64,000 nucleotides of DNA, from the sequence record MK817115.1; one strand, 5' to 3'. Numbering within the stretch: position 1 is the stretch's first letter; every line of letters starts with the position of its first letter. The translations under genes and the position numbers were made by a program. Of this stretch, positions 2,888 through 51,057 are shown piece by piece. This DNA comes from Escherichia phage vB_EcoM_phAPEC6. The notes under the pieces are model-generated. The model had not been told where the DNA came from and did no database searches. It saw only the letters and a list, made by a program, of their open reading frames with translations.

Positions 2888-2900
2888 TATTTTTCAAAAG

Positions 2901-2929: not shown

Positions 2930-2934
2930 ATATG

Positions 2935-28045: not shown

Positions 28046-28053
28046 TATAAATA
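28046..28053 (+). promoter_or_regulatory. T4-type late promoter TATAAATA for baseplate operon
   Basis: Exact box 35 nt upstream of ATG 28089, with GGAG RBS between. Confidence 0.5.
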
Positions 28054-28088
28054 CATCAAATGTTCCCTTATTATGGAGAATCAAAAAG

Positions 28089-31408: not shown

Positions 31409-34072
31409 ATGGCAGATACAAGTAAAAAGTATGCACAACAGCAGTTGGGTCGTTTTGACCCATCTTATCCGCAGTTAGCAACTGTTATGGATAACAGAGA
31501 TCCAACTAAATCAGGAAAACTGAAAGTTTGGATACAAGGTTCTCAAAGTGATAAAAACTCAAAAGAATCATGGATAGAAGCATCTTACATGTCTCCTTTT
31601 GCTGGTAAAACACCAGGTATTCCAAGTGCTGATGCATATGGTCAATATCCAAAAGGATACGGTTTTTGGGCAGTACCACCAGACGTAGGGTGTACAGTTG
31701 TTGTAATTTTTGCACAAGCCCGTACATTCCAAGCATATTGGATTGGTTGTGTATATGACCAGCGTATGAATACTATGGTTCCAGGTATGGCAACTGAAGT
31801 AAGTAATTATGGTGGAACTGATATGCCACTTCCTGTTACTGACTATGATCGTAACACTATCACTACCGATATGCAAGACAAATATGCTAACGTTCCAATT
31901 ATCGCAGGTCTTAAAAAGCAAAACCTTTTATATGACGAAGAAGCTGGGTTGGCGAATCGTAGTAGTACTCGACAAACCACCAGTACTGTATATGGTATGT
32001 CTTCGCCACGTGGTAATAGTTTTATTATTGATGATGGATATACTGAAGAGGAATTAACAGCACCAACGTGGGATCAAGACCCAGATGGATATCAAGATAC
32101 ACAATTTAATAACCCAGTAAACGATACACGTGTTGGTTCTCGTAAAAATGAAGGTGTCGTAATAAAAACACGTAGTGGTGCACAACTTCTTTTATCAGAA
32201 GCTACTGGTGATGTTCTTTTAATTAACCGTGATGGCACTGCACGTATAAAATTCACTGGTGAAGGTGATATTGACATGCACTGTGATAAGAATATTAATA
32301 TTCGTGCTGGTCAAGATATTAATATTACTGCTGGACGTTCATATAATATTGAAACCGGACAAGATTTCAATGCACGAGTTGGTGCAAATACTAAATTAGA
32401 TCTAATTGGTGCTCTTGATGCAAAAGTTGGTGGACAAGTTGTTGTTAATTCTGGGGCAGACCTTCGTTTAGTTACGGCTGCATCATTACGTATGCAAAGT
32501 GGTAGCAGTACTGATATTACGGCTGGTTCAAATGCTTCTATTTCTGCCGCAACATCTGCAAACCTAATTGGATCATCATCAGCAATTATTAGTGGTGGTG
32601 GTCAAACATTAACAGTTAATAGTGGTGGTAATAGCGGTACTGCTGAATTTACTGCACCAAACTTTAGAACACCATCTGCTGGTCTTAATGAACACATTCA
32701 TGATATCGCTGCATGGGTTAACGCTGAAAATCATGGTAGTTATGTTGAACCACCAAGACAAGGTGGTGGAAGTGGTTCTAGTGAATCACCAGTACAACCA
32801 CAACCAGCAAATGATGTATCACCAGAATTACCCGTAGCACAAGACACTGAAGCTGTTCAGTTTGTTAACTATACATCAGAAACTGAACAAGTTCAATCAC
32901 AAGATTTGATGACATCTGATCCTGGGATGACTGGATATAGTATTACATATGAAGGTTTACATATGTTAATGCCATGTAGCGGTACTATTCGACAATATGG
33001 TTACTGGGGGAAAGGTGTTCCAACACAAAGTGGAGGAAAGGCAGACCGTTCAGGTTGGGAAATACAATGTAAAGGTGATGTAGTTGCACCAGATGGTGGT
33101 GTGGTAGTAATTACTAATGGTGCTCTTTTAATACAACATAAGTCTGGATATAAATCTATTTTTTATAATATTCAATCTGATTTATTAAACAAAGATGTTG
33201 TTCAAAAAGGTCAAGTTGTTGGAAAAGCAAATGGTGTCATACAGTTTGAAATTCGTGTTACATCAGCAAATGTTCTTGGATTCAGTGGTTCTGTTGACCC
33301 AGGATTATTTTATGCTTCACAAACAGGAACAGGGTCTGATGCGGCGAATAAAACATTAATTGGTGGTCAAGCAACTAATCAATCTGCTCCAAAAGCAGTT
33401 GTACAACCTTCAGTTGATAGTGATGAATTGGTAGTTACAACAAAAATCAAAACGATAGGTACTGGATATTCTCAACGTGGTTCTCGTCATGTGCCTCGTA
33501 GGAGAAGAACACAGAGAAGTGGAGCTTCAACAACTCCGGTGGAGCAACCTACCTATAATATTGGAAATGTTGATAAAACTGCAATCGATTGGAAAGTTGT
33601 TCCAGGTGATGCACAATTTATTTCTGAATTAAAAGAATATGAAGGTACATTACAATACCAACAAGCAAAAGGATATTATCGTAATGGTAAATTCTGGCGT
33701 TATTTGGATAGTCGTGGGTATCCAACTATTGGTTATGGTCACTTAATTATTAGTGGTGAAAACTTTTCAGATGGAATAACTGAACAGCAAGCCAACGATA
33801 TGTTAGTTCGTGATAGTAGTAAAGCTATATATGATGCTAAATCAATTTATGCTTCATACAACATGAAAACACCTTATTTGGCTCAACAAGTACTATGCCA
33901 AATGGTATTCCAGATGGGTAAAGGTGGGGTACTTAAATTTAAAACTATGTTGTCTGAATTAGCTAAAGGTAATTATAAACAAGCTGCTGCTCAAATACGT
34001 AATTCAGCTTGGTATCGCCAAACTACTCGCCGTGCTGAGTTAATGGCTCGTCGTTTAGAGGCATGTCAATAA
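31409..34072 (+). CDS. Baseplate central spike (gp5/gpV-like) with beta-helix and C-terminal GH24 lysozyme domain
   Basis: N-terminal gpV-like segment VMDNRDPTKSGKLKVWIQG; repeated x-G-x-x-x-N beta-helix region; C-terminus aligns with T4 lysozyme (EYEG...D...TIGYGH, MVFQMGKGGV, WYRQTTRRAE). Confidence 0.7.
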   Translation: MADTSKKYAQQQLGRFDPSYPQLATVMDNRDPTKSGKLKVWIQGSQSDKNSKESWIEASYMSPFAGKTPGIPSADAYGQYPKGYGFWAVPPDVGCTVVVIFAQARTFQAYWIGCVYDQRMNTMVPGMATEVSNYGGTDMPLPVTDYDRNTITTDMQDKYANVPIIAGLKKQNLLYDEEAGLANRSSTRQTTSTVYGMSSPRGNSFIIDDGYTEEELTAPTWDQDPDGYQDTQFNNPVNDTRVGSRKNEGVVIKTRSGAQLLLSEATGDVLLINRDGTARIKFTGEGDIDMHCDKNINIRAGQDINITAGRSYNIETGQDFNARVGANTKLDLIGALDAKVGGQVVVNSGADLRLVTAASLRMQSGSSTDITAGSNASISAATSANLIGSSSAIISGGGQTLTVNSGGNSGTAEFTAPNFRTPSAGLNEHIHDIAAWVNAENHGSYVEPPRQGGGSGSSESPVQPQPANDVSPELPVAQDTEAVQFVNYTSETEQVQSQDLMTSDPGMTGYSITYEGLHMLMPCSGTIRQYGYWGKGVPTQSGGKADRSGWEIQCKGDVVAPDGGVVVITNGALLIQHKSGYKSIFYNIQSDLLNKDVVQKGQVVGKANGVIQFEIRVTSANVLGFSGSVDPGLFYASQTGTGSDAANKTLIGGQATNQSAPKAVVQPSVDSDELVVTTKIKTIGTGYSQRGSRHVPRRRRTQRSGASTTPVEQPTYNIGNVDKTAIDWKVVPGDAQFISELKEYEGTLQYQQAKGYYRNGKFWRYLDSRGYPTIGYGHLIISGENFSDGITEQQANDMLVRDSSKAIYDAKSIYASYNMKTPYLAQQVLCQMVFQMGKGGVLKFKTMLSELAKGNYKQAAAQIRNSAWYRQTTRRAELMARRLEACQ

Positions 34073-34612: not shown

Positions 34613-35008
34613 ATGGCAGTTGTTTTTAAAGGGTTTTCTACCCCTGTAGTTGGTAGAACTGAAACATTGTATGATAGTGAATTGGTTCGCCAAGATTTAA
34701 TGAATCATTTCAATACAAAAAAAGGTGAACGAGCATTTGATGCTGACTATGGGTTTATTGCATGGGATTTGCTATTTGAATTGGAAGGTTATAATACTAT
34801 CAACCTTTTAGAAGCAGATGCCCGTAGAATAATTAGCTTAGACCCACGTTTAAATCTTAAAAAATTACAAATTTCAAGAATAGAATATGGATACCAAATG
34901 AATATTGTATTACAGTACGTAGTATTGGACGCATTAGAAGAACTTACTATAGTATTTGATGCAAGAAGTAATAATCGAATGGCAACATATTCAGTTTCGT
35001 CTTTATAA
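34613..35008 (+). CDS. Baseplate wedge protein (gp25/gpW-like)
   Basis: GERAFDADYGFIAWDLLFE aligns with T4 gp25 GSRPFDPEFGCDLSDQLFE as recalled; 131 aa. Confidence 0.65.
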   Translation: MAVVFKGFSTPVVGRTETLYDSELVRQDLMNHFNTKKGERAFDADYGFIAWDLLFELEGYNTINLLEADARRIISLDPRLNLKKLQISRIEYGYQMNIVLQYVVLDALEELTIVFDARSNNRMATYSVSSL

Positions 35009-35109: not shown

Positions 35110-38100
35110 ATGTCACAACAAAAAAGACAGTCTAATTTATATAGTGGTGAGGATTGGACTCAAGTATATGAAAGTTTTTATAAAATCAATCTAACAGCTT
35201 ATGATTTCGATACTATCCGTCAGAGTATGATTGATTATCTACGTGCAACTTACCCAGACTCATTCAACGACTGGATCGAAAACGACCAGTTTATTTTTAT
35301 TTTAGATACGATTTCTATGCTAGGTCAGAACTTGGCATTTCGTATGGATTTGAACACACGTGAAAACTTTTTAGATACTGCAACTCGTCGTGCATCAGTA
35401 CTAAAACTAGCTAAAATGATTTCTTACTCACCACGCCGCTCATATCCAGGTCGTGCAGTTGCTAAATTAACCGAAATTAAAACAAACCAAGATGTTCGTA
35501 ATAGTTTTAATGAATCATTAAAAGATAAAATCATTCGTTGGAATGACCCGATGGATGCTAACTGGTATGAAAACTTTATTCTAGTAATGAACAGTTCATT
35601 TGTCAGTACTAACCAATTTGGTAATCCAGTCAAGCGTATTGATGTTAATGGTGTCTCCCGCCAACTATATCGAATGAACACCATCCCAATGACAGCACCC
35701 AGTATTCCATTTGTTGCAACTGTCAATGGTGAATCTATGACATTTGAAGTAGTGAATCCTGATATTACGTCTGTTGGTGTTGAAGAACGACATCCAGAAC
35801 CACAAGAGCAAAAATATATTGTTTATCAAAATGATGGTAATGGATTTAGCTCACCAAATACTGGGTTTTTTGTATATTTCGTACAAGGTACATTGACATA
35901 TCAAGATTATCAATATGCTATCCGTGAAGAGAACCGTATACAAGATATTAACGTTGATAATATCAACGAAACTGATGTATGGGTTCAAGAAATAAATGAA
36001 GATGGTATTGTTCGTACCAAATGGACAAAAGTTCCATCAATGGAAAGTATTGCATATAACACTGTTAATCGTCAATTAAAAACAATTTTTGCTGTTACTA
36101 CTCGTGATAAAGATCAAATAACAATTAAGTATCCAGACTCAAGAAGTGGTGTTGTTCCCCGTGGGACGTTCCGTGTATGGTATCGTGTTAGTAATGGTAA
36201 AACATATAACATTAAAACTTCTGAAATTCAAAATAAAAGCGTAAAATATACATATCGTACAAAAACACAGTCAAGTTATGAATCTAGTACATTGGATATA
36301 CGTTTTTCATTACAATATGAGTCCGACCGTGCACAAAGTGCAGAGACTATTGAGCAGATTAAAGCACGTGCACCACAAATGTACTATACACAAAACCGTT
36401 TTGTCAATGGTGAAGATTATAATATTGCACCACTTAGTTTAGGCAATACTGTACTTAAATCTAAAGCTATTAATAGAATTTATAGTGGACAATCAAGATT
36501 TATTGATATTAATGATCCTACTGGTAAGTATCAAAATACCGATGTTTTTAGTGATGATGGTGCATTATATCAAGAAAACACACAATTTAATAGGTCATTA
36601 TTACTACCAACTACAAAAACAAATGCTAGTATTGTTATTGACAATATTCAACCATTGATTGGTGAAAATGCGGTAATACAACGTTACCAAGCGTTTCCAT
36701 CAAATACAATTGGTATTGAAATACAACAAGCATGGACTCCGGTATACAATTCAAATTATACAACTAACACATATGGTAGAATTTTGGGTTCATCTGGTAC
36801 AGTTTATGGTTCATATCAGGTTGGTACTCTAATTAAATTTTCTAATTCTGGAACTACTATATGGGCTAGTGTAGTTAGTGTATTGGATAATGGATTTTAT
36901 GTACTGAGTACATCGGTTCCAAGTGGAATGCAAGCCATAGAGTACATTTTACCATATAGAACTAGATTTAACTCGGTTGAAGTTCAAGCAATTTCTGCTA
37001 TGCTAGATAAAAAAACTGATTTTGTTATTGTACATGACAAAGAAACGACATCATGGGTTCCTATTGAAGTAAGTACCAATGATGATACTATTGTATATAA
37101 TGGCAATGAAGTTTTAATTATAATTAATGTAAAATATACAGCAGAAACTTGGGAATTTGATGCTAACGGTATTGAATATATTTTTGTGGGTGGAGAAAAA
37201 GTAAGATTTTACTTTGTATCATCTAAAAAAATTACTGATATTAGTACTGGTACAGTTCAAAGTGATAAGATTGAAATTTTATCATCTAACACTACTAGTA
37301 GTAGTAATTCAGGATTGACAAGTAATATAGATTTTCAAATTTATGACACAATTCAACAAGAGAATGGCTATCTAGATGGTTCTCGTGTTATTGTTACATC
37401 TAGGAAAGTAGATAGTAATGGTATACCATTGGAACCAAACCAATTTAAAGAAATTGTTCCTACTTGGACTGGAACCGATGCATTAAAATATGGTGGTATT
37501 TTGGTATTTCAGGAAAATAGTGATTTCACTATATCAGTACTGTCGTTACCAAATGATACCTTCACACTTCTTGATTCATCGTGGTCTTATACAATGGAAC
37601 AAGCCTTGGCAGAGCCGAATGCATATAAAAGAACTGAATTTGTTAGAAATAACGCAATTCGTTCAACCACATTGAGTGGATTATATAGTAAAGGTTCTGG
37701 ATTTTTAGTTGGTTTTAACTATGATGGTAAATATTATTTTATTGAACAAACAGTTGGTAATAACAATGATCGTTTAGGACAGCTAATTAGTAATTTAACT
37801 TATTCCGATGATACTGGCACTGTTAGTCCTGAATTGGCTTTTTATCGTGCAATTAATAACATGGGAACTAATGCTGACGAGAATCAGAAGCTAGATTATT
37901 ATGGATACAAAGATGTTACTTCACAGTACACTGTTAAAACTAATGCACGTACTAGTATAGACTTCCATTGGAAACACTATGCACCTGACGACAATCGCAT
38001 TGATCCTAGTAGAACAAACTTAATTGATATGTATGTATTAACCAATTCATATAAAACTGAAGTTGACGTTTGGTTGAAAAATAATGCTGTTGGTAGTATT

Positions 38101-38571
38101 CCTAAACCACCTACATCGGTTGAATTGAAAGATATGTTCAAAGATGTTGAACAAAAAATAGTCATTAGTGATAGTATTATTTGGCATAGTGCTGAGTACT
38201 TACCTTTATTTGGCAACAGTGCTGCTGAAGATTACAAAGCTGATTTTAAAGTAGTGAAATTACCAAACAGCACAATGAGTGACGATGAAATTCGTCAAAA
38301 TGTTATAGCATTAACTAATGAATACTTCAATGTTGACAACTGGGATTTCGGTGAAAGTTTCTATTATACTGATTTGTGTACTTACATACACTCACAGTTA
38401 GGTAGACATATTAGTACCATTGTTATAGTTGCACAAAATCCAAATTCAAAATTTGGCTCTCTATTTGAAATCCCTTCACGTTCAGACCAAATATTTTTGA
38501 GTACTGCATCTGTTGAAAATGTTCAAATTGTTAACTCACTAGCTAAAAGTAATATTAATATCGGTTCTTAA
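35110..38571 (+). CDS. Large baseplate wedge protein (gp6/baseplate-J-like by position)
   Basis: 1153 aa directly after gp25-like gene (conserved W-J order); AAAGGAA RBS; no motif confirmed. Confidence 0.45.
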   Translation: MSQQKRQSNLYSGEDWTQVYESFYKINLTAYDFDTIRQSMIDYLRATYPDSFNDWIENDQFIFILDTISMLGQNLAFRMDLNTRENFLDTATRRASVLKLAKMISYSPRRSYPGRAVAKLTEIKTNQDVRNSFNESLKDKIIRWNDPMDANWYENFILVMNSSFVSTNQFGNPVKRIDVNGVSRQLYRMNTIPMTAPSIPFVATVNGESMTFEVVNPDITSVGVEERHPEPQEQKYIVYQNDGNGFSSPNTGFFVYFVQGTLTYQDYQYAIREENRIQDINVDNINETDVWVQEINEDGIVRTKWTKVPSMESIAYNTVNRQLKTIFAVTTRDKDQITIKYPDSRSGVVPRGTFRVWYRVSNGKTYNIKTSEIQNKSVKYTYRTKTQSSYESSTLDIRFSLQYESDRAQSAETIEQIKARAPQMYYTQNRFVNGEDYNIAPLSLGNTVLKSKAINRIYSGQSRFIDINDPTGKYQNTDVFSDDGALYQENTQFNRSLLLPTTKTNASIVIDNIQPLIGENAVIQRYQAFPSNTIGIEIQQAWTPVYNSNYTTNTYGRILGSSGTVYGSYQVGTLIKFSNSGTTIWASVVSVLDNGFYVLSTSVPSGMQAIEYILPYRTRFNSVEVQAISAMLDKKTDFVIVHDKETTSWVPIEVSTNDDTIVYNGNEVLIIINVKYTAETWEFDANGIEYIFVGGEKVRFYFVSSKKITDISTGTVQSDKIEILSSNTTSSSNSGLTSNIDFQIYDTIQQENGYLDGSRVIVTSRKVDSNGIPLEPNQFKEIVPTWTGTDALKYGGILVFQENSDFTISVLSLPNDTFTLLDSSWSYTMEQALAEPNAYKRTEFVRNNAIRSTTLSGLYSKGSGFLVGFNYDGKYYFIEQTVGNNNDRLGQLISNLTYSDDTGTVSPELAFYRAINNMGTNADENQKLDYYGYKDVTSQYTVKTNARTSIDFHWKHYAPDDNRIDPSRTNLIDMYVLTNSYKTEVDVWLKNNAVGSIPKPPTSVELKDMFKDVEQKIVISDSIIWHSAEYLPLFGNSAAEDYKADFKVVKLPNSTMSDDEIRQNVIALTNEYFNVDNWDFGESFYYTDLCTYIHSQLGRHISTIVIVAQNPNSKFGSLFEIPSRSDQIFLSTASVENVQIVNSLAKSNINIGS

Positions 38572-38575: not shown

Positions 38576-38602
38576 ACGGGCGTTCTTCGGAACGCCTTTT
38601 TT
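38576..38602 (+). terminator. Intrinsic terminator with UUCG tetraloop (gggcgttc-ttcg-gaacgcc plus T6)
   Basis: Stem-loop and T-run read directly. Confidence 0.6.
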
Positions 38603-38650
38603 ATATCATAAATAAATCAAATGAATGAACGAATTATATGGAGTCCAAAA

Positions 38651-41600
38651 ATGACTAATAATTTTAAGTTTCAACCTACACAGATGGCTGAAGCAGTACA
38701 GAAGAAGCTTTTTATTAAAAGATTGCCTGAGTGGATGCAAGGCTTAGAAGATATTCAAAAAGTCAGTGATGATGTTATTCAACAATGGTTTAATCCGGCT
38801 GAAAACGAATTAGTTGACGGCTATATTGGTGATATGGGTTCTCCTGCCGCTGCTGGTAATATCTTCTTACATGAAAGTACTGTAGCACGTCAACTTTATC
38901 AGTTGTCCACTGCTTACGTCTCAAAAAATGATGATTCGACAATTCGTTCAATTCAATTTTATGATGATCTAGTTGGATACATGAATCATTATGGAGCACT
39001 AACCGATAATGAAAGCCGTTTGTTCAACGGTAAGTTTTATGCATGGACTCCAGCTATTAACCCAAATAAAATGAACAATTTTAGCTCATATCTTTGGGAT
39101 ACTAAAAACTCTTATAATATTACTTCACCTGATTACATTGTAATGGAACGTGGAGCACTTAATGGTAATACATGGTCACTACAAAACTTTTGGTATACTT
39201 TAGGTGAAACATTAGAAGATGGCTCAATATTAACTGAAGAATTAATGCAAGATTCACGTTTTATTCGTGCACGTGCACCAATTATTGAATATAATAAAAA
39301 TATTGAGCTAATTAACTACGGTACAAAATTCCGTGGAACTGTTGATCTGTTCTCTGATATTATTAAACCTGAAGATATCGTTCAAAAAGATATTAATAGT
39401 GGTATACGTATTGATGGTATTATTCCGCAAGATGGAATGCGTATTCTATTCACCAGTATTGGTAACAATGGTGAAAACAATAGAATTTATAATGTATATG
39501 TGAAAAAAATGCAAGATGGTACTCGTGTTTATGGTTTAGCACTAGATCCAGAAGAAGAAACCGAATCACGCCCAAGTGGTGAACCTCAAGATGGTGATGT
39601 TGTTCTAATCACTAAAGGTAATGAGTATGGTAATAGTTCTATGTACTGGAATGGATCTTTGTGGGTTCGTGCACAATCAAAAACTAGTGTTAACGTATTC
39701 CCTAAATTCCAACTTTATGATCGTAATGGTATCAAACTTGACAACAGTACTACATATCCATCAAGTAACTTTAAAGGTTCAGAGTTGTTTGGTTTTAAAA
39801 TAAATTACAACTATGCAACTGATAGTGTATATGGATATAACATTGAACTTGGTGATTATAATTATTACATTTATGAAAACTTTTTACAATCCCAACGTTA
39901 TACCTATGACCATCTTGGAAAAGAAGTTGAAATTGATGGTTTATACTATTATAACATTATTGATGAAAATAATGAAATGAATCTTCAAACCGATTGGGTT
40001 CGTTCAGAAGAGTACTCTAAACAATTTGTAAAACAAACTCCACAAGTCCAACGTACTGATATGTATCGTGTATTCAGTACTGTTTATGATATGGAAGTTT
40101 TTAAAGAACCAGTTGATGGTATGTATGCATATGTTATTGAAGTTGATAGAACATATCAGTACTATAAAGCTGACCGTGAAACTTATCTAGATTGGCATCC
40201 AATTACTGGTGATGGTGTTCAGATTGTAAAATATGACCATACATTCGAATTGGCACAAAAAGTTTTAGATAATGATTCTGATATTATTGAAGTTGTGGTT
40301 GATGGTGTTGATGTGTCCAAATATACCAAAAATGTTTCAAAAGGTCAAGTACAAAGCATCACTCTAGATAGTACTGTAGAATTGGATGAAGATTCTGTTA
40401 TTCAAATTAGAACTTATAGCAGTACTGTAACTCCTAATAAAGAATTAGGTGCATATGAAGTTCCAATCAACCTACAAAATAACCCATATAATTCTAATAT
40501 TATATACATTAACCAAGGTGACTACACTTTACATTTTCAGGATATTATTCAAAAGAACATTACACGTGGTTCTTCTGATGATTTCAATGACTATGAAGAA
40601 CGTTTGGCTAAAGGATTGGTTAATAATGGCGTAGGTACTAAAATTATCCAAAATGAAGCATCTATGCTTCCATTGATGGCACATACTGCAAATGAAGATA
40701 TTGATTTGTTTGAAGCAACTATGTTTATGCAATCTGAATATTTTAGATTCATTAATAAATTTAATACACAAATGCTTCGTATGTATGATGAAAATCCATC
40801 AGACTTTTTACAAAATAGTGCTGCAAACATTGTTGATGCAATTTTAACTACTATTAATATGGGACGTGATAGTTCATTCCCATTCTATTATGATAATGTT
40901 GGAAGTACTTCTGGATTCATTCGTGCATTTATACCACCAACACCACAGTTCTTAGGTATTCTTCAAGCATATGTACCAGAAAAAGCGACATTCCTCACTG
41001 CTGGTAGTAAACCAAGCTGTTATAACATCAGTCATACTGGTATTATTTCCAAAGCATACCGTGTTATCAATGGTGTTGATAAAATGGATGATGTTGTATA
41101 TGAATTAGAAAATAGAATTTTTAATAGTATTGATAATAAATTCAAAGATGTTGATTACGTACCAGTATTGAATAGTGATGACCTTTTCCCTACACCATAT
41201 TTCACTAAAACTGAATATAGTGCTGAAGAGAAACAAACATTATTACTACGTGGATACATTAACTTCACCGCAACTAATGGTATCAGTAATAGTACACATG
41301 ATTATGATCCTAACAATTGGAGAACTTGGAACTATACTGGCACTTATTATGTAGTTAATGGTCAAAGTACTGAAATTCCTGCACGTGGTTCATGGCGTGC
41401 CATTTACACTGACCAATATGGTACATATCGCCCAGCTACCCATCCGTGGGAAATGTTTGGCTTTACACAACGTCCAACTTGGTGGAACCAAGAATACGAA
41501 CCAACGGCTGTTCAAGTTGGTGAACGTGATAGTGATGTTGTATATGTATATGAAGCACTTGTTATGAATGAGCAAGGTGATTTAGTTCCTAGTGGTCTTT

Positions 41601-44600
41601 GGGATATTGACGGAACTATTGGAGATAGCAGTACTGGAACTATTTTATTTGGTGATCGTCGTGGTCAATATGACAAATATAAAAGATTTGGTGTACAGCC
41701 ATTCAAAATTACAAAAACTGGAAATAAAACATCTTCTGGTATTGATATTTGTGTGGTTGAATATATTGCACCTGAAATTTTAGGTTTAGTGTCTGGATCT
41801 TTAAATCATAGAGCAGAACCTTGGACATATGGTGATATGGGTGACATGGAATTTACATACATGAACACTACATTGTTTGCATATGACCAAATGATGCTTT
41901 TGTATAAAGCTAAACCAGCACAATTTGCTAACTATTTCTGGGATACCCGCAACGATAACTTAAAAGAAGTATTCACTGATGGTTCACAATTCCTTTATGG
42001 TGATACACGTAAGCGTATTAATTTTGATAAAAATACAGTAGTTCATGGTGAAAATAGCACAAGAACAATTGGTTATCAAATGTTTGTAAGTGACCATTTG
42101 ATGTATCAAAATAAAAATATTACCACCAAGTATGGGGATGTAGTTCGTTCTTCTTATATAAATGTTGGTCATAAAATTGGAGGATTTACTAAAGCAGATC
42201 AGCTAACATTCAATGCTAAATCTTTCGGTCTTATTTCACAAGAAAACCAAACCATTGGTCTTGTTCGTTCTAATAATATCCGTGATGAGCAAATGAGTGC
42301 GATCAAAATTACTTGGAATGGTAGTGCATATCAGATTGATGGATATGATCTAGTTGGTGCTAAATTTAAATATAAACTTCCAGTAAAAAATGGTAGAAAA
42401 GTAACTCTTAAATTGGAAAACCGTAATGTTGTTCATTATAATGAATGGAAGTCTGAAGCTTCAATTGAATATGGTAAAGTTTTCAATAGTTACCAAGAAG
42501 TTTATACTTTTATTTGTGGATATGGTGAATATCTTAAAGAACATGGTTGGATTTTTGAAGATGTAAATGATAGTGGTGCTCAACAAGATTGGAACACTAT
42601 TGCTAAAGATTTCGTGATCTGGAGTCAGAATTCTCTAGTAACTGGTGAATTTATTTCTTGTACCCCAAGTGCTGCAAACGCTAAATTTGGGGCAGACTTT
42701 GGTTCAGTACAATCTATTACGCAAAATAATGGTGGTGTATGGTCATTACTTGATGATAATAACCAAGGTATTCGCCAATATGAAATTGAAACTTCTCGTA
42801 TTGGAAATATCTTCACTGTTAGAACTTTAGAATCTAATAAACGCATTGCATTGATTCGTTTAAGTTTGTGTTCATATGAACATGCTGTTATTTTTGATGA
42901 TAAAACTATTTTTGGTGATTACATTTATCAGCCAACATATGGTTCTATTCAAGAACTAATTAAAATGTATGGATATATTACTGGTTCATGGACTGGTCGC
43001 CTACAAGCTCCTGGATTTATTATCTTGGAAGCTGGAACACTACCATCATTTGAAAAATTAGTGTCGGATTTCCAACATTATTATGATAGTGAAACTCCAG
43101 TAAGTGATGTACAATTACAAGAGTTGTCAAACCATTTGATTGGTTATCAATCTCGTGATTATCTACAGCGTATGATTAGTAGTGATGTTAGTCGTGTTGA
43201 TTTCTATAAAGGATTCATTCACGATAAAGGTACTAACCAAGTTTTAGAACGTGTACTTCGTGTTTCTAAATCATATGACACTGATGAATATAAAGCATTA
43301 CAAGAATGGGCATTTAAAATTGGTACATATGGTAATATTGATGGTAAGAAAAACCTTCAATTTAAACTAATCAATGACCAATTTAAACAACAACCTCAAA
43401 TGGTTTCTTTTGATGTAAATGCAACTTCAAATGGTAATGGTAATCATATTGTATACTTCGGTGAGCAAGGTAAAGATCCTCGTTGGATTACACGTCCAAA
43501 TGGTAAGTTCTCATTCCCAATGCGTAGTGGAAGAAGTGAAAACATCCAACTTCCAGATATTGGTCCAGTAACATTGGATGAAGTATCGTACACAACAAAA
43601 GATTTCAGTACTGCATATAATGACCGCATAACTTATACTAATGGTAAAGGTGAAAATCCTGAATCTGTGTGGATGTTTAAAGACGGTAATGGTTTGTGGA
43701 ACATTTTTGAATTGGTTGATACTAATGTACAAATGGTTTCTATAACACCTATTGAAAATACCGATGTGTATGCTGAACAATTTTGTAAAGTAACTTTAAC
43801 TGATAATGTACCACTTGAAGATGGTGATTATTATTATTTTGTTGATGAAACTAACTTTATGCCAGATACTTTAACAGTAGAAAGTCAATATTATACTGCT
43901 GGTTCTGATCCTAAAGTTATGGTAGTTCCATTTGACACTTCTATTGATATTGAATTTACTGATCCAGATACACGTCCACGTTTGTATCGTTATGTATCAC
44001 GTTTTGCCAGTACTGATGAACGTCAAGCTTACATTGACAAGAAATATAGTTTTAAAGCACCACAAAGTACTTTATTTGATCGTCCAACGACATATGATGA
44101 ACGTACTAACATTACTGAGCTATATCTAAACGTTTATGACCCAATTAATGGTGTTATTCCAGGTGCGGCTATGCAAAACGTAACATATACTTCACCAGTT
44201 GATCCTGCACAGTATAATAGTAATGGAGAGTTAATCCAGGCTTGGGGTGCTGATAAAGTTGGTCAAGTATGGTGGAACACTAGCACTGCATTTTATTTGG
44301 ATTATACTCGTGCAATTTATGACGCAGACGGTAATGTTGATATTGATGCAACCAATGAATACAAACGTTACAACTGGGGCCGTTTGTTACCACATAGTAC
44401 CATTGATGTGTTAGAGTGGGTTTGTTCACCAGTTGAGCCATATAACTGGGACAAATACTGTAAAGATGTTGCTAAGAAAAACAAAAATAATACTATGTAT
44501 CTACCAAGTGGAACTGCACTTGAAGATAATTATAGTACATTTTTGGAATATGATAGTTCAACTGATAGTTATGTAACAAAATACTATTTCTGGGTACGTG

Positions 44601-47600
44601 ATACAATTTATGTACCACCACTACATACCAGAACGAAATCATGTACTGACATTGCTCGTATTATTAAAGATCCAACACAGCTAAACATTCCTTGGTTCGC
44701 TCCAATAAATGAAAACTCGTTTATTCTTAGTAATATGCAATTTAAAGTGAATGATGATACCAGTATTTTAACTGTTTCTTATTACATGGATAGTACTGAA
44801 GTTGTTAAACATGACCAGTATCAACTATGTAAAGAAGGTGACAGCTATAACTTTAACCCACTAATTTGGGATTCAATGTGGAACTCACTAATTGGTCAAG
44901 AAACAACTGAATCAGGTTCTGTGATTAATTTATTATATCCAGATGTTGATAACGGTTTAGGATCAAACAAAACTTGGTTCCAAAATGTTATAGAAGCTCG
45001 TAGAAACTTTGTAGAAAGTGCTAATAATTATTATAGGTCACAAAACATAACCACTAATAGTGTTGTTATGGAAGATGTGTTTAATGTTAAAACCACTGAA
45101 GTTAACCCTAATGAAGTTTCTTTCCGTGTATTGTCTTACAATAATGAATTAGTTATTGCAGTTGAAAGTGATAAATTTAAAGAAAATGACGCTGTTATTT
45201 TAAGTACTAGTGGATATCTACCAAATCCATTAACTTCTAGTGCTGTTTATTTTATTCACTTCGACGAAAATGGATATATTCAGTTAATGAATAGTCCAGC
45301 AAACGCGGGTAGTGTTGTTACTATAACGTTAGAGAACAAAGGTGAGGGACAACATAAAATGATTAAACAATCTGATTATGTTGAATCACTAGGAACTTCA
45401 TTAGACATGACTCAGTACTGGTCATATGCTGATTGGTATGATGTTGGATATGATAGTAACACGACTTATACTCAAGAGTCAAGCTTAGAAGATGCTAATA
45501 CTAAAAACTACCAAGTTGGCGATATTATCAGAGTTACCGATAGTGAAAACATTTGGACATTGTATATTAAATCACAATCACGCGATTCAATTTATTGGAA
45601 AGCGATTGGTCGTGAAAACAGTACAGTTGAACTCAATGATATGCTTTACGCAGATTATAGTGTTCATAATGATAATGGTTCACTAAGCAATCGTGAAATC
45701 AACGTTCGTAAAGCACTAGCTTTACTCAAAAATTCTTTCGATTTACATCAAAGCGAAATTGTTTTTGATATGGTCAAATATGTACATGTTGAACAAAGTG
45801 TTGTGGATTGGGTATTTAAAACATCATATATCTATATTGTTGGTTTGGAACAATCATTAGTTCAAAACTATTCAAACGATAATTTGATTAATCAAATTGT
45901 TGAATATTTTGAAGAAGTTAAACCTTATAGAACTAAAATTCGTTCACAAATAGAGCAAAAGACATCTGATGATGATTTAATAAAAGGTCTATGTAATGAT
46001 TTAGATCCTAATGGATATATTTTCGTTGATGGTTCTTGGATCAAAACTGAAAAAGATATTTGGGATTATGAGTACGCTCAATTTAATGAAATTACCCAAA
46101 AATGGGAACAGGTAGGTTCACTACCAAGTGATTTCGTTACACCAAATAGAAGATTCCAAGAAATTGATATTATTATGCATTATGATAATATTCAGTGTAA
46201 ACCAAATGAAGATTTGGCAAGCATAAATGAATTAGTAAGTGTTAATAACAAATATCAATCCAATGAAAAGGATGCTGTTAGTAACTATGAATTACAACGT
46301 TATATATATTCTTTCCCAGAATATAGTGAAGAAACTTTCGATCTTCTTATTGCTTATCAAATGCAAATCTACTATCCAGAATTGGATGTAACACTAGGAA
46401 CAGCATATGGCGTTAACCAGTGGTATAAAGACCATGCGGAAGATTTAGAAGCAACTGATGAATTCACTGCTACATTGGAACGTGTTTATAAAGAATCAAC
46501 GCATAACGATATGTTTACTGACCTTAGACAATATGTTCAGTATAACACATTGGCAAACCGTTTGAAACTTTATAAAGATATAAGTGATGAGAAAATTCAC
46601 GATGAAGTTGGATGTGGATTTAGTGGACTTACTTATAATGACAATCCTAGTACTAGACTTCCATTAGGCTTTTCTTCTAGTAATGATTATAACTATGGAT
46701 ATTTTGAAATAAGCAGTGAATTGTATCAAAAATACATTTCATTAATTAAAGATAAAAATCCTGACGCATCAGACTATGAAGTAAAAGTTAAACTTGAAGT
46801 TGAGTATGGTGTATATGTTTATCGTTATGATGAAGTAGGTGGTGATACCCGTTTCTATACTGATGCTATTCACGTATTAGCAGGTATGAGAGGGTTATTC
46901 GACAAAGACGCTACTGATAAGTACGAAAAAGCTGAAGAGATTCTTAGTAAGACCCCAATTGATATCTATGCAATTACAATGATTCCACGAAAATATGTTT
47001 ACTTAAATGTTAACGGTGTATATCAAAGTATACCTGATGAACAAAGTATTGATGATTTCATGGAAGATTATTTTATCACAAATGGTGAAATGGTTGAACT
47101 AGCTGAAATAAATCTTGATGATTTACCACTAGATCAAAATAATCCAATGTATTCTGATTATCAATATATACTTGATAGTATTACTGAAGCTAAGTACTTC
47201 AATGATATGAATGCATTTGATAACCTAGCATTGGAATCTCAAACTTCTTCAATAAAATGGGAAGTTAAAGATGATGAAGTTGATCCTTATATTGTGGATA
47301 TATCTGACATAAACCCTTCTGGGCGTGATGTAGGTCAAATTAGATTTACAGTTGATGGATATGGGTTTGACAATGTATCTCTTGTACAATTACGTGATAA
47401 CAGCAGATATCAAACTGAAGGTATGGCAATTATCAATCCATATAAACATACAGAAGCAATTGTAAGTATTCCTTCATATGCTAAGATTGAAAATGATATT
47501 AATAAAACAACATCGAAGTTTGATGAAAAATATTTCTATCGTGTGAGATCTATTAATAGCTTAACTGAAGCAGAAATAGTTGACAATGACCTATCTGATG

Positions 47601-48622
47601 GTGATAAGGTGATGATTTTCACTCCTGATGGTGAAGATTTTGTGAGATATCAAAATCACACATGGGAAACAATCTTGCGTGTATCTAACATCAAAAACAA
47701 TACAACTCCGATCCTATTCACTGTAAGAAATACAGGTAAGGAAACGATTGAATTGATTGATGAGAGTACTGGTGCAGTTCTCCGTTATGATAACATCACT
47801 CTTGCACAACAAAATGAGCCAGTACAGCCTCTAGCATTGAACATTGTTCGTGTTAGAACATTTGCTGACCCTGAATTTGTCAAGAATGGTATTAAATTGT
47901 ATGAACAAAATAGAAATTACACCATTGATGTAATTAATTATGATGTTTTCTACGATACTACTTTAAATGGTGGTAAGTACAATGACGGAATAACACCAGA
48001 TGACGTTGACGTTTGGATAATCTCCAATGAAATATTTGATGTTGATGGAATTACTATCGATAACGGTTATAACTTACCAATTACGGGTGCGGGAGTTCTT
48101 AGTGAATTGGCAAGAACTAAAATGACTGATAGTTTAGAAATCAACGTTATCGAATATGATTCAAGTGTTATTCAACCGTTTAGAAATAATGAAGGGATAT
48201 GGGTTTATGGATTCCCAATGGTTGACGGTATGTATATCGGTGTTGTTGGTGGTACTGTTACTAACATCACAACCATTAGTGAAGAAAATACAACCTATGT
48301 TTCTCAACCTAAATCAATAAGTCCTTATAGTATTAGAAATAATGTTTTATCCGGTTCAGCCGCGAACATGAATGATATTATATCGATTGGATATGAAAAA
48401 GTTGAAGTTAGAAATGCAAATAATTTACTCCGTGGTGTAATGTATAGTGCAGAACATGATTTTAAACTTAATACCACATATTCTTTCAATGGAATTAATT
48501 TAGGTAATTATGATATGTTAAAACGTTACACACAAAATAGTTACACTATAGATCTTTCAGTATACACTGATAGTCTACAAGTTAGTGGTAATGATATTAA
48601 AAATATATTATTAGTTAAGTAA
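38651..48622 (+). CDS. Giant structural protein (~3323-3333 aa), probable baseplate/tail component
   Basis: Uninterrupted ~10 kb frame; GGAG RBS before ATG 38651 (ORF track starts at 38621); follows gp25/gp6-like genes; Asn/Tyr/Thr/Gly-rich with no obvious long internal repeats. Confidence 0.55.
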   Translation: MTNNFKFQPTQMAEAVQKKLFIKRLPEWMQGLEDIQKVSDDVIQQWFNPAENELVDGYIGDMGSPAAAGNIFLHESTVARQLYQLSTAYVSKNDDSTIRSIQFYDDLVGYMNHYGALTDNESRLFNGKFYAWTPAINPNKMNNFSSYLWDTKNSYNITSPDYIVMERGALNGNTWSLQNFWYTLGETLEDGSILTEELMQDSRFIRARAPIIEYNKNIELINYGTKFRGTVDLFSDIIKPEDIVQKDINSGIRIDGIIPQDGMRILFTSIGNNGENNRIYNVYVKKMQDGTRVYGLALDPEEETESRPSGEPQDGDVVLITKGNEYGNSSMYWNGSLWVRAQSKTSVNVFPKFQLYDRNGIKLDNSTTYPSSNFKGSELFGFKINYNYATDSVYGYNIELGDYNYYIYENFLQSQRYTYDHLGKEVEIDGLYYYNIIDENNEMNLQTDWVRSEEYSKQFVKQTPQVQRTDMYRVFSTVYDMEVFKEPVDGMYAYVIEVDRTYQYYKADRETYLDWHPITGDGVQIVKYDHTFELAQKVLDNDSDIIEVVVDGVDVSKYTKNVSKGQVQSITLDSTVELDEDSVIQIRTYSSTVTPNKELGAYEVPINLQNNPYNSNIIYINQGDYTLHFQDIIQKNITRGSSDDFNDYEERLAKGLVNNGVGTKIIQNEASMLPLMAHTANEDIDLFEATMFMQSEYFRFINKFNTQMLRMYDENPSDFLQNSAANIVDAILTTINMGRDSSFPFYYDNVGSTSGFIRAFIPPTPQFLGILQAYVPEKATFLTAGSKPSCYNISHTGIISKAYRVINGVDKMDDVVYELENRIFNSIDNKFKDVDYVPVLNSDDLFPTPYFTKTEYSAEEKQTLLLRGYINFTATNGISNSTHDYDPNNWRTWNYTGTYYVVNGQSTEIPARGSWRAIYTDQYGTYRPATHPWEMFGFTQRPTWWNQEYEPTAVQVGERDSDVVYVYEALVMNEQGDLVPSGLWDIDGTIGDSSTGTILFGDRRGQYDKYKRFGVQPFKITKTGNKTSSGIDICVVEYIAPEILGLVSGSLNHRAEPWTYGDMGDMEFTYMNTTLFAYDQMMLLYKAKPAQFANYFWDTRNDNLKEVFTDGSQFLYGDTRKRINFDKNTVVHGENSTRTIGYQMFVSDHLMYQNKNITTKYGDVVRSSYINVGHKIGGFTKADQLTFNAKSFGLISQENQTIGLVRSNNIRDEQMSAIKITWNGSAYQIDGYDLVGAKFKYKLPVKNGRKVTLKLENRNVVHYNEWKSEASIEYGKVFNSYQEVYTFICGYGEYLKEHGWIFEDVNDSGAQQDWNTIAKDFVIWSQNSLVTGEFISCTPSAANAKFGADFGSVQSITQNNGGVWSLLDDNNQGIRQYEIETSRIGNIFTVRTLESNKRIALIRLSLCSYEHAVIFDDKTIFGDYIYQPTYGSIQELIKMYGYITGSWTGRLQAPGFIILEAGTLPSFEKLVSDFQHYYDSETPVSDVQLQELSNHLIGYQSRDYLQRMISSDVSRVDFYKGFIHDKGTNQVLERVLRVSKSYDTDEYKALQEWAFKIGTYGNIDGKKNLQFKLINDQFKQQPQMVSFDVNATSNGNGNHIVYFGEQGKDPRWITRPNGKFSFPMRSGRSENIQLPDIGPVTLDEVSYTTKDFSTAYNDRITYTNGKGENPESVWMFKDGNGLWNIFELVDTNVQMVSITPIENTDVYAEQFCKVTLTDNVPLEDGDYYYFVDETNFMPDTLTVESQYYTAGSDPKVMVVPFDTSIDIEFTDPDTRPRLYRYVSRFASTDERQAYIDKKYSFKAPQSTLFDRPTTYDERTNITELYLNVYDPINGVIPGAAMQNVTYTSPVDPAQYNSNGELIQAWGADKVGQVWWNTSTAFYLDYTRAIYDADGNVDIDATNEYKRYNWGRLLPHSTIDVLEWVCSPVEPYNWDKYCKDVAKKNKNNTMYLPSGTALEDNYSTFLEYDSSTDSYVTKYYFWVRDTIYVPPLHTRTKSCTDIARIIKDPTQLNIPWFAPINENSFILSNMQFKVNDDTSILTVSYYMDSTEVVKHDQYQLCKEGDSYNFNPLIWDSMWNSLIGQETTESGSVINLLYPDVDNGLGSNKTWFQNVIEARRNFVESANNYYRSQNITTNSVVMEDVFNVKTTEVNPNEVSFRVLSYNNELVIAVESDKFKENDAVILSTSGYLPNPLTSSAVYFIHFDENGYIQLMNSPANAGSVVTITLENKGEGQHKMIKQSDYVESLGTSLDMTQYWSYADWYDVGYDSNTTYTQESSLEDANTKNYQVGDIIRVTDSENIWTLYIKSQSRDSIYWKAIGRENSTVELNDMLYADYSVHNDNGSLSNREINVRKALALLKNSFDLHQSEIVFDMVKYVHVEQSVVDWVFKTSYIYIVGLEQSLVQNYSNDNLINQIVEYFEEVKPYRTKIRSQIEQKTSDDDLIKGLCNDLDPNGYIFVDGSWIKTEKDIWDYEYAQFNEITQKWEQVGSLPSDFVTPNRRFQEIDIIMHYDNIQCKPNEDLASINELVSVNNKYQSNEKDAVSNYELQRYIYSFPEYSEETFDLLIAYQMQIYYPELDVTLGTAYGVNQWYKDHAEDLEATDEFTATLERVYKESTHNDMFTDLRQYVQYNTLANRLKLYKDISDEKIHDEVGCGFSGLTYNDNPSTRLPLGFSSSNDYNYGYFEISSELYQKYISLIKDKNPDASDYEVKVKLEVEYGVYVYRYDEVGGDTRFYTDAIHVLAGMRGLFDKDATDKYEKAEEILSKTPIDIYAITMIPRKYVYLNVNGVYQSIPDEQSIDDFMEDYFITNGEMVELAEINLDDLPLDQNNPMYSDYQYILDSITEAKYFNDMNAFDNLALESQTSSIKWEVKDDEVDPYIVDISDINPSGRDVGQIRFTVDGYGFDNVSLVQLRDNSRYQTEGMAIINPYKHTEAIVSIPSYAKIENDINKTTSKFDEKYFYRVRSINSLTEAEIVDNDLSDGDKVMIFTPDGEDFVRYQNHTWETILRVSNIKNNTTPILFTVRNTGKETIELIDESTGAVLRYDNITLAQQNEPVQPLALNIVRVRTFADPEFVKNGIKLYEQNRNYTIDVINYDVFYDTTLNGGKYNDGITPDDVDVWIISNEIFDVDGITIDNGYNLPITGAGVLSELARTKMTDSLEINVIEYDSSVIQPFRNNEGIWVYGFPMVDGMYIGVVGGTVTNITTISEENTTYVSQPKSISPYSIRNNVLSGSAANMNDIISIGYEKVEVRNANNLLRGVMYSAEHDFKLNTTYSFNGINLGNYDMLKRYTQNSYTIDLSVYTDSLQVSGNDIKNILLVK

Positions 48623-48624: not shown

Positions 48625-48660
48625 AAAAAGGAGAGCATAATGCTCTCCTTTTCTTTTTTT
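48625..48660. terminator. Bidirectional terminator (ggagagca-taa-tgctctcc), same stem as at 2905
   Basis: A-run upstream, long T-run downstream; between convergent giant gene and ClpA-like gene. Confidence 0.7.
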
Positions 48661-50947
48661 ATACTAGTGCTTTATCTACAGCTTTGGTACGTTTCGGCTT
48701 AATACCGATTTTACCATCAATAACATCAAATGTAATGTTACCACCATTCACAAGTGAACCACACAACATTTCTTTAGCTAGTGGTACACGAATGTTTTGT
48801 TCAATGGTACGTTTCATTGGACGTGCACCCATACCAACTTTTACCCCATTTTTCGCAAGCCATTCACGTGCAGCTTTTGTCAATGTAACTTTAACATTAC
48901 GGTCTTTGACTTGTTCATTCAAACCACCCATGAACTTATCAATGATGCTGTCAATAGCTTCACTGCTTAGGTCTTTAAACGTAACGATACTATCAATACG
49001 GTTAATAAACTCTGGTGGCAAGAATGCTTTAATTGCCTTGTCCTGTGCAGTGTCACTACCGCTCATACCAATGCTACGCTTTGTTGAATCAGCCGCACCA
49101 AGGTTTGTAGTCATAATAACAGTTACGTTATTAAAATATACAGTTTTACCTTGAGAACCAGTCAGACGACCTTCATCCAAAACCTGTAGGAAGGTTAGTA
49201 GTACTTTACGATCTGCTTTTTCAATTTCATCAAGTAACAGTACTGCATTAGGGAACTGCTCAATTTTATCCAACAGTAAACCGTTACCAGAATCATGACC
49301 AACATAACCTGGAGGTGAACCAATTAGTTTAGAAACAGTATGTTCTTGAGAAAATTCTGACATATCAAAGCGAATGAGTTCCGCACCAGTTGCGTCTGCT
49401 AATGCTTTGGTAATTTCTGTTTTACCAGTACCAGATGGTCCAACAAACATAAATGCACCCTGAACACTAGATTTGTCACGCAGTCCTGCACGAGCTACCA
49501 TCACGTTATCAACTAATTTTTGAATAGCTTCCTCTTGACCGTATACACGTGAGCGTAGTGCATCTGGTAGATTACGCATACGATCACTTTCAGTACATGC
49601 AACCACGTTGATATCCAAATTGGCAATACCAGCAACAACTTCTTGAATCAAATTGGCAGTAATAAGCTTACTATTGTTGTCACGTGAACGAACTTTAGCC
49701 GCAGCAGCATCCATTAGATCAATTGCTTTATCTGGGAAGTGCTTATTCTTCAGGAATTTATCACTGAGAGAAATTACAGCATCCATTGCATCAGATGTGA
49801 ACTCAACATTATGGAATTTTTCATACGTTGGTTTCAAACCATTAACAATTGCACGAGTTTCATCAATTGTCGGCTCAACTACGTCAATTTTCATAAAACG
49901 ACGAGTTAATGCACTATCTTTCTCGATATTTTTACGATATTCATCATATGTTGTTGCACCAATTACACGAATCTCACCACGTGAAAGTGCTGGCTTAAGC
50001 ATATTGCTCATGTCCATAGAACCATTACTTGCGGAACCAGCCCCAACCATAATATGAATTTCATCAATGAAAACAATAGTATTTTCACGTTTCTTTAGTT
50101 CTTTTAGCAAATTGTCGATGCGTTCTTCAAATTCACCACGATACTTAGTACCAGCAGTCAATGCACCAACATTTAGTGAAAGAATTTCAACGTCTTTTAG
50201 GTGTTCAGGTACGTTACCATCAGCAATAGCTTGTGCAAGCCCGTCGATGATTTGTGTTTTACCTACACCAGCTTCACCAGTGAGAATAGCATTCTTTTTG
50301 GTTTTGCGAGCAAGAGTCTCAATCAATGCAGACAATTCTTTCTGGCGACCAATCATAGGATCTAGTTTGCCTTCTTTTGCAAGAGCAGTTAGATTCGTTG
50401 TATAGTCTTCCAAACCTTTTTGTTTAGATGATTGCTGCTGTTGGGCCACTTTTTTATCTCCAATCGGTTCGTCATTAATACTTTGTAAGTTGATACCCTT
50501 ATCAAGTGACTCAACGTGTTTCTGTAATGCACGTGCAGCTTCAGTACAGCTAACACCTTCTTCTTTTAACGCAGCTTCTAGTGCTGTGTTAGGGAAAGAC
50601 AGACATTCGAATAGAACAAAATATGCATCAATCGAAAAATCATCACTTTTTAGTTGTTCAATAACTGATTTTTTAGAAAGCTCATGTACAACGCGATTCA
50701 CTAGAAGTGAAGTTCGATTCGCGTCTTCATCTTTAACACTTTTTGGTGCATGTGGAACTGTTGTATTTTTAAGATAGTTCATCAGGCGGTTGTGCAGTTT
50801 GTCTGCATCAATGTTCATATCTTCAAATACGTTCTTGATGCTATCAATAGTCAGTACTGTGGCACTTACGTGGTCAATAGTCAAGAATGTATGACCTAGA
50901 GATGTTGCCAGTTCGTCGCTTTTTTTGAACAATTGAGTAAGATTCAT
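48659..50947 (-). CDS. ClpA-like Hsp100 AAA+ unfoldase with two nucleotide-binding domains
   Basis: D1 Walker [10 protein letters not shown] and Walker B VFIDEIH; D2 Walker [10 protein letters not shown] and Walker [10 protein letters not shown]; KRSIGMSG parallels the ClpA IGL ClpP-docking loop as recalled; ORF-track start is GTG, ATG 50945-50947 has AGGAGA RBS. Confidence 0.8.
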
Positions 50948-51057
50948 GTATTCTCCTATGTGATTCACGTCACTCTAATTAATAAACATTATATCACATT
51001 CTTACGGTTTGTCTACAAGGTAAATAAAGATATACCCGATTTATTTTGGAGACAATC

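Follow-up and report, generated by a model that had tools for sequence, protein, structure and literature searches.

The 64,000-nucleotide (nt) stretch of Escherichia phage vB_EcoM_phAPEC6 DNA analyzed here (MK817115.1; referred to as the window) carries a baseplate module in which genes for gp25-like and gp6-like proteins are followed by one giant gene. The source genome is an Asteriusvirus (PBECO4/121Q/G17-like), a Rak2-like jumbo myophage of ~350 kb. The giant gene lies in a single ATG-to-stop open reading frame (ORF) of 3,333 codons that extends without interruption over positions 38621–48622 of the plus strand, and the remaining five frames contain 163–606 stops each across the same 10 kb. 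The G+C content is 33%, and therefore a chance origin of a stop-free 10-kb frame is not possible.

Where does translation of this frame begin? ATG 38651 (Met11) is most likely the true start of the giant gene, and several features support this assignment. A GGAG at 38640–38643 precedes ATG 38651 with a 7-nt spacer, and no Shine-Dalgarno sequence was found upstream of ATG 38621. The phrog_10938 profile and most homologue alignments start at residue 11, the annotations of the relatives UE-S1 and BF17 place the start of the coding sequence (CDS) at the equivalent of ATG 38651, and conservation of the ten upstream codons is limited to the closest relatives. Moreover, the computed mass of the product that begins at Met11 agrees with the 381.88 kDa published for phAPEC6 gp245. 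The upstream extension is probably not translated. Terminator-like hairpins lie on both sides of the gene, one between the gp6-like and giant genes and a stronger one between the giant gene and a convergent ClpB-like gene (Table 1), and the UE-S1 record annotates terminators at both equivalent places. The T4-type late promoter TATAAATA is not enriched across the window and does not occur ahead of the giant gene.

The giant gene is already known, having been annotated, confirmed by mass spectrometry (MS) and mentioned in several papers. At the DNA level Escherichia phages G17, PBECO4, SP27 and Sharanji match the ORF with 99.9% identity and 121Q with 99.2%; the PBECO4 gene is ACQ29_gp538, ‘virion structural protein’, and the same GenBank label stands on the gene in dozens of records. 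The protein matches phrog_10938 over positions 1–3324 of 3324 (E = 0), and PHROG 10938, phAPEC6 gp245, CBB_236, RaK2 ORF070w and PA5oct gp128 are one and the same protein family, with identities to the named phage proteins from 99.9% down to ~28%. Virion MS, which the initial annotation of this DNA had named as a check, has been published for two members: phAPEC6 gp245 was detected at 381.88 kDa with 17 unique peptides and 7.6% coverage, directly after the likewise virion-detected 131-kDa gp244 ‘baseplate wedge’ (PMC7247149), and CBB_236, which adjoins the baseplate wedge protein CBB_237, was detected with 21 peptides (PMC5259590). The CBB paper also aligns genomes on ‘the largest ORF’ of each Rak2-like phage (PMC5259590), and the PA5oct paper counts gp128, the neighbour of the baseplate wedge protein gp129, as one of the largest proteins of that phage (PMC7318152). 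None of these three papers assigns a function to the giant protein, and likewise none is assigned in the RaK2 adsorption-complex paper (PMC10253068) or the phiKp24 cryo-EM paper. What is added here is a corrected start, the size and distribution of the family, a domain-conservation map, the absence of repeats and the finding that 2,400 modelled residues have no close neighbour among solved structures. Two homologues carry divergent labels: that of phage EJP2 (OQ411014.1), ‘D-alanyl-D-alanine carboxypeptidase’, looks mis-annotated, and that of phage PAC2 (PP408249.1), ‘chitin-binding type-3 domain-containing protein’, covers only a small inserted CBM_5_12 module.

The gene order gp25-like, gp6-like, giant places the giant gene in the position of a wedge connector, and the giant gene follows gp25-like and gp6-like genes in all contexts examined. 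In PBECO4 it is preceded by genes for a gp5-like hub/lysozyme, a lysozyme, GPW/gp25 and a ‘baseplate wedge subunit’. PBECO4 and three metagenomic loci, whose giant homologues are 24–28% identical to the phAPEC6 protein, share the order of a ~100-aa gene, a ~700–890-aa protein, hub, gp25, a ~1,130-aa gp6-like protein and the giant protein; the ~100-aa gene is a ‘baseplate wedge subunit’ in PBECO4 and gp53-like in CBB. RaK2 has the hub, gp25-position, gp6-like and giant genes in order, and in Xoo-sp13 two wedge genes precede a 3,245-aa protein. Tail-fibre genes (Gp34_trimer, Peptidase_S74, Collar) directly follow the giant gene in two of the three metagenomic loci (L004, L005). Syntenic gp6-like homologues carry PF27647 DUF8360. 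In the reference records, gene 7 follows gene 6 in T4 and I follows J in P2. The initial annotation had read the locus as a baseplate module with the giant gene where T4 would carry gp7, and this reading holds for the neighbouring genes (Table 1) and for position, which is as in the T4, P2, Mu and type VI secretion system (T6SS) clusters; it does not extend to homology, which neither sequence nor fold searches detected. Within the module, a second lysozyme-domain protein lies directly after the hub and just before the gp25-like gene (34109–34597, 162 aa, Phage_lysozyme E 5e-9).

Table 1 Features of the giant gene and its surroundings (positions in the window; ORF residues counted from ATG 38621)
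Feature	Position	Strand	Details
Giant protein CDS	38651..48622, stop codon included	+	3,323 aa, 381.87 kDa, pI ~4.6
In-frame upstream extension, 10 codons, probably not translated	38621..38650	+	MNERIIWSPK; accounts for the 3,333-aa ORF length
Family-wide conserved core	38651..46030	+	ORF aa 11–2470; BLASTP segment map against 120 homologues
Two predicted N-terminal helices	38690..38788	+	Met11-based aa 14–23 and 33–46; highly conserved, low-confidence in the monomer model
Central conserved helical segment, low-confidence	42932..43285	+	ORF aa 1438–1555; carries RHLIGYQ...FYxGxIxxKGT
Signature region used as family profile	43088..43504	+	ORF aa 1490–1628, alignment A5
Clade-specific, faster-evolving C-terminal part	46031..48619	+	ORF aa 2471–3333; still under purifying selection
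Terminator-like GC hairpin and T-run	38578..38606	+	Between gp6-like and giant genes; 8 pairs, 5 GC
Strong terminator-like hairpin and T-run	48626..48652	+	12-bp stem; 3 nt past the giant-gene stop codon
gp5-like hub/spike protein, C-terminal lysozyme domain	31409..34072	+	Phage_base_V, DUF2345, Phage_lysozyme (E 1.5e-11)
gp25-like sheath-initiator/wedge protein	34613..35008	+	PF04965 GPW_gp25, E 1.7e-8
gp6-like baseplate wedge protein, presumed partner	35110..38571	+	1,153 aa; phrog_10646; phrog_219 ‘baseplate wedge subunit’ E 1.2e-20

A further question raised by the initial annotation is whether the frame is always intact. A megablast search with the ORF returned 57 phage records and a tblastn search with the conserved core returned 92, and in 72 of these the match spans at least 80% of the core as a single piece; the frame is unbroken in relatives down to ~25% identity. 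The Nei-Gojobori ratio of non-synonymous to synonymous substitution rates (dN/dS) is 0.058 against UE-S1 (dS 0.59) and 0.085 against BF17 (dS 1.03), and it is at most 0.15 in all 150-codon windows. The first 150 codons gave 0.009 and 0.041 for the two relatives and form the minimum against UE-S1, and the minimum against BF17 falls in codons 1801–1950. Values are slightly raised over the last ~800 codons, the C-terminal part ranging from 0.04 to 0.15. The whole giant gene is under strong purifying selection, and the uninterrupted ~10-kb frame of the initial annotation is real. The two outcomes that the initial annotation had named as refuting it, a split frame and proteomics with short products only, are thus answered by the intact frame in relatives and the published virion MS, both in favour of a genuine giant protein.

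An artefactual fusion or a decaying gene that yields shorter products only is an explanation that is already effectively refuted. It would draw on the low MS coverage of 7.6% and on three Salmonella-phage records from one study, SD-1_S14, SD-2_S15 and SD-6_S16, in which the gene is annotated as 3–4 CDSs. Two of the three were inspected: SD-1_S14 (OR699183.1) lacks 13 nt at one site and 11 nt at another, in sequence that is 99.6% identical, and SD-2_S15 (OR699181.1) has several deletions of 1–26 nt; apart from the deletions, sequence identity in the two records is 99.3–99.7%. The break sites lie at ORF nt 1742, 3990, 5554 and 5753, and nt 5753 is common to both records with deletions of different length. 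Because the deletions are small and fall in near-identical sequence, one site recurs, the genomes are 20–40 kb shorter than those of relatives and there is no build-up of stop codons, the splits are likely assembly artefacts. Decay or fusion is further contradicted by the intact frame in 72 records and hundreds of metagenomic homologues and by the low dN/dS in every window. The same assembly-quality problems probably affect other genes of the split records too.

How widely is such a protein distributed? Among 5.8 billion proteins, a word-indexed search recovered 198 homologues, with lengths of 2,780–5,638 aa and on contigs no longer than 512 kb. The most conserved region, alignment A5 with 137 positions, was then used as the family profile, and an exhaustive HMMER search with this profile against 1.84 billion cluster representatives gave 1,124 clusters (50% identity) at E ≤ 1e-3; stricter thresholds of E ≤ 1e-10 and E ≤ 1e-30 left 855 and 250 clusters, respectively. 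The phAPEC6 protein belongs to this family by full-length homology that includes the signature RHLIGYQ...FYxGxIxxKGT...EEWAF. Isolates with the family comprise all Rak2-like genera, Vibrio phage 2.275.O, the PA5oct group, Agrobacterium phage Atu_ph07, Sinorhizobium phage Phosso and Salicola phage SCTP-2, with partial matches in XacN1, Xoo-sp13 and Stenotrophomonas phage CM1; complete genomes among the matches listed are all larger than 284 kb. The family spans a large supergroup of jumbo myophages made up of the Rak2-like genera, PA5oct, Atu_ph07, SCTP-2, XacN1-like phages and numerous uncultured huge phages. In the distant phage Xoo-sp13, in which a shorter or divided form of the protein was sought, it proved to be giant too.

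The phAPEC6 protein is 3.2 times the size of T4 gp7 (1,032 aa), in keeping with the roughly three-fold ratio first given for it, and ~19 times the size of P2 gpI. Within its own family, however, its size is not exceptional. The listed family members are mostly 2,500–6,362 aa long, and 141 newly listed representatives have a median of 3,798 aa and a maximum of 6,362 aa, with 61 of them at least 4,000 aa and 17 at least 5,000 aa. The phAPEC6 protein is below the family median length. It is a genuine and under-studied giant structural protein that was already known and is no outlier in its clade.

Conservation along the chain is polarised such that the N-terminal 2,470 aa are shared family-wide and the C-terminus is clade-specific. 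Within the Rak2-like clade the alignment is nearly gap-free, lengths are 3,310–3,361 aa, and identity over aa 1–2500 is mostly 55–80%, with dips to 43–49% at aa 501–600 and 1651–1800. From ~aa 2540 onward clade identity is 24–54%, and the C-terminal ~860 aa are alignable in the Rak2-like clade only and partly in a set of further homologues (P0060–69). Distant homologues have insertion hot spots in the core at about aa 160, 470–590, 760, 1600–1825 and 2140–2260. CBM_5_12, FG-GAP and Laminin_G_3 modules occur in distant homologues, all as matches below the usual significance; in two of them (P0089, P0095) CBM_5_12 lies inside inserted segments and FG-GAP in or beside such segments. Residues L25 and P26 in the N-terminal helix region are invariant or nearly so family-wide, and alignment A5 has invariant G/K/G positions in the signature region. 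No internal repeats were found: a BLASTP self-comparison shows the diagonal only, and the best hhalign probability in 861 tile pairs is 9.6%, in line with the initial annotation, which had seen no long repeats.

AlphaFold2 models were made for two tiles, each with a 23-sequence family alignment, that together cover ORF aa 11–2410 (72% of the protein). Tile A (ORF aa 11–1210) is predicted as a compact, mixed alpha/beta multi-domain body with a mean predicted local distance difference test (pLDDT) score of 82.4 and a predicted template modelling (pTM) score of 0.73; its only low-confidence part is the first ~70 residues, including the two helices, at which pLDDT is 30–49. Tile B (ORF aa 1211–2410) is predicted to consist of beta-rich domains (mean pLDDT 77.6, pTM 0.43), and its helical stretch at ORF aa 1438–1555, with pLDDT 40–56, coincides with the most conserved signature of the family. 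A Foldseek search of tile A against the PDB gave no match at E ≤ 1e-3; the best match, to the N-terminal docking domains of CBA120 TSP4, had E 0.048 and covered <10% of the tile, and no gp7-, TssG- or gpI-type or phiKZ chains were among the fold-search matches listed for the tiles. In these models, 72% of the giant protein is confidently predicted and is without a close structural neighbour in the PDB.

Sequence searches gave a similar result. Pfam and NCBIfam yielded noise only, with no match even at E ≤ 5–10 on 500-aa tiles and 31 family members, and phmmer and hmmsearch against all PDB sequences gave no credible match for the giant protein; the C-terminal part has no Pfam or PDB sequence match, and phmmer of the gp6-like protein and of a 749-aa neighbour found none in the PDB. 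Comparisons by hhalign with T4 gp7, P2 gpI and a gpI profile gave probabilities of 0.1–2.6%, the gpI profile being narrow and limited in sensitivity: it comprised 17 sequences, and the homologues listed by the gpI search all shared 70% identity or more with P2 gpI. Two profile matches to the PDB were taken as chance, namely a 60-aa GCN5-like stretch with the full-length clade profile (E 0.16) and the Mycoplasma p37 transporter with the A5 profile (E 0.004). A possible likeness of FYxGxIxxKGT/RHLIGYQ to HKGT/SRHLIGL of P2 gpI or to T4 gp7 was rejected as evidence because of these hhalign values and because the two gpI motifs are in the opposite order. Nor does the protein resemble a tape measure, which would be a predominantly alpha-helical chain: the models are beta-rich and multi-domain, and the giant gene comes after the gp6-like gene and before fibre or tail genes.

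A family-wide invariant block at ~41033–41500 (ORF aa ~805–960) includes H795, E820, N894, G913 and P932-W933 in ‘HTHPWEMLGF’ (tile A numbering) and sits in a confidently modelled alpha/beta domain without a fold match. This block might bind a metal or ligand or form a key interface. Some invariant His, Glu and Asp residues, such as H795 and E820, could in principle be catalytic, and one hypothesis is that the giant protein resides inside the virion or is ejected from it, that its size is to be compared with the N4 virion RNA polymerase or pilot/ejection proteins, and that its adjacency to baseplate genes is incidental. In favour of this hypothesis are the detection in virions and the PHROG filing of phrog_10938 under ‘head and packaging’, a category that hangs on the generic ‘virion structural protein’ label and not on evidence. 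We regard this hypothesis as improbable, since the gp25/gp6 synteny is kept down to ~25% identity with fibre genes next in two of three metagenomic contexts, neither Pfam nor the fold searches turned up an enzymatic domain or fold, and the family searches gave no transmembrane or polymerase signatures. The ‘head and packaging’ category is also given to phrog_11190 and phrog_11591, so that it applies to 38651–48622, 29146–31395 and 51046–52551, and for all three it looks like a default label that contradicts the conserved genomic context.

What, then, might a protein of this size do in the virion? On balance we lean, by a modest degree, toward the hypothesis that it is a single-chain peripheral wedge or baseplate scaffold at the gp7 position in the jumbo-myophage supergroup, a proposal based on gene position and conservation pattern and not on homology. 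A wedge connector is defined as forming a 1:2 heterotrimer with a gp6-like protein via a helical core bundle and a trifurcation unit (PMC9942802, PMC13250141). In the Pam3 wedge, two gp6-like chains and one peripheral gp7-like chain form a six-helix core bundle, and the peripheral chain bears the fibre sites (PMC9942802); in phiKZ the wedge bundle consists of the N-terminal helices of three chains (PMC13250141). The rationale for a peripheral wedge subunit is this solved architecture together with the conserved gene order and the order in T4 and P2. In the CBB BLASTP table of T4 homologues, gp6, gp25 and gp53 are among the baseplate genes and gp7 to gp11 are not (PMC5259590); this would be in keeping with a single protein that stands in for several, but could just as well reflect divergence. 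The giant protein, a virion component encoded in the late module and in every case after gp25-like and gp6-like genes, would dock on a dimer of the 1,153-aa gp6-like protein through its N-terminal helices (aa 14–46), and possibly through the central segment at aa 1438–1555, so as to complete the helical bundle of the wedge. Helical segments that are highly conserved yet low in pLDDT behave in the monomer models as might be expected of hetero-oligomeric bundle elements. Six copies per baseplate would amount to ~2.3 MDa. The conserved, compact and repeat-free body of ~2,460 aa would then serve, as one chain, as the outer baseplate scaffold that T4 and phiKZ make from many separate proteins. The faster-evolving C-terminal ~860 aa and the insertion hot spots may face outward and provide docking sites for the fibre or tailspike network, direct contact with the cell surface, or both. 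Of the components of these phages, the giant protein is the most plausible docking platform for their multi-valent tailspike networks.

Several points weigh against this proposal. Pfam, NCBIfam, phmmer, hmmsearch against the PDB and hhalign gave no homology to gp7-, gpI- or TssG-type proteins; the structure models end at aa 2410, before the last 28% of the chain (aa 2411–3333); and docking by a helix bundle is derived from low pLDDT combined with high conservation. In addition, the actual counterpart of gp7 might be one of two structural proteins encoded upstream, of 749 aa and 273 aa. These two conserved proteins (29146–31395 and 27999–28820, respectively) have no Pfam, NCBIfam or PDB sequence match, and counterparts of ~700–890 aa and 240–285 aa occupy the same positions in all three distant loci; hub and tube initiator are further candidate roles for them.

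An alternative hypothesis is that the giant protein is not an integral wedge subunit but a baseplate-attached adhesin or fibre hub, possibly oligomeric, that carries a branched tailspike network or binds the cell surface, another small protein having the gp7 role. The CBM_5_12, FG-GAP and Laminin_G modules of distant homologues would suit such a protein, and the RaK2 fibre anchor has no assigned partner in the baseplate (PMC10253068). All of these module matches fall below the usual significance, however, and the giant protein has neither the fibre-type repeats nor the beta-helix of a tail fibre or tailspike. Its most conserved part is the N-terminal 2.5 thousand residues rather than a short anchor, and no other gp7 candidate was identified in the conserved module. 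A scaffold, as opposed to a fibre, is indicated because tile A is modelled as a compact body, length is near-invariant in the clade and repeats are absent. We consider the adhesin or hub alternative unlikely but not remote.

If the single-chain peripheral scaffold applies across the family, the jumbo- and huge-phage supergroup may build its outer baseplate from one polypeptide of 2.5–6.4 thousand residues that replaces the multi-protein periphery of T4 and phiKZ, with folds largely lacking a solved counterpart and surface-binding modules inserted at fixed hot spots. This generalization is tentative, and we hold it to be possible but somewhat short of probable. Should the positional argument be correct, it would represent a second route to a complex baseplate, through one giant chain as against many small ones, and would bear on how contractile injection machines are scaled up in jumbo phages. 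With such a modular chain, one gene would determine how the baseplate is built and possibly which hosts are infected. In phages now under development as therapeutics against E. coli, Klebsiella, Salmonella and Pseudomonas, no other uncharacterised component is as large as the giant protein, and its ~2,400 confidently modelled residues without a close PDB neighbour are a target for structural work.

Two genes further downstream are of separate interest. Directly after the giant gene and convergent with it, 48659–50968 on the minus strand encodes a 769-aa ClpB/ClpA-like double-AAA+ ATPase with AAA_2 (E 2.4e-49), ClpB_D2-small and Clp_N domains. The gene is beside the giant gene also in PBECO4, UE-S1 and RaK2 and not beside the three distant homologues examined; that this unfoldase/disaggregase might act as an assembly chaperone of the 382-kDa protein is pure speculation. 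A MutT/NUDIX hydrolase gene (53905–54369; phrog_1198, E 4.6e-45) lies amid tail structural genes, just after a gp15-like sheath stabiliser, and occupies the same place in RaK2.

How does the giant protein compare with known systems? It shares with T4 gp7, P2 gpI, Mu gp48 and TssG the gene slot directly after gp25-like and gp6-like genes, its nature as a virion structural protein, and conserved, predicted N-terminal helices like those from which solved wedges assemble their core bundle; by analogy, its periphery would be expected to carry fibre docking sites, as theirs does. No sequence similarity to T4 gp7, P2 gpI or TssG was detected and no such chain stood among the fold-search matches listed; the protein is likely a functional analogue of gp7 that is not filed as a member of the gp7 family. 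The docking domains of CBA120 TSP4, which are gp10-like, gave a match that is not significant, and the giant protein is without the catalytic beta-helix or trimeric spike body of that protein. With the phiKZ periphery (gp128, gp49, gp161, gp139, gp27, gp26, gp130 and gp157) it has in common the setting of a jumbo myophage with an enlarged baseplate platform for many fibres, although no PDB chain, from phiKZ or otherwise, matched it by sequence. Whereas phiKZ spreads this periphery over many proteins of up to ~900 aa (PMC13250141), the giant family places one polypeptide of ~3,300 aa at the wedge position, which is the opposite design.

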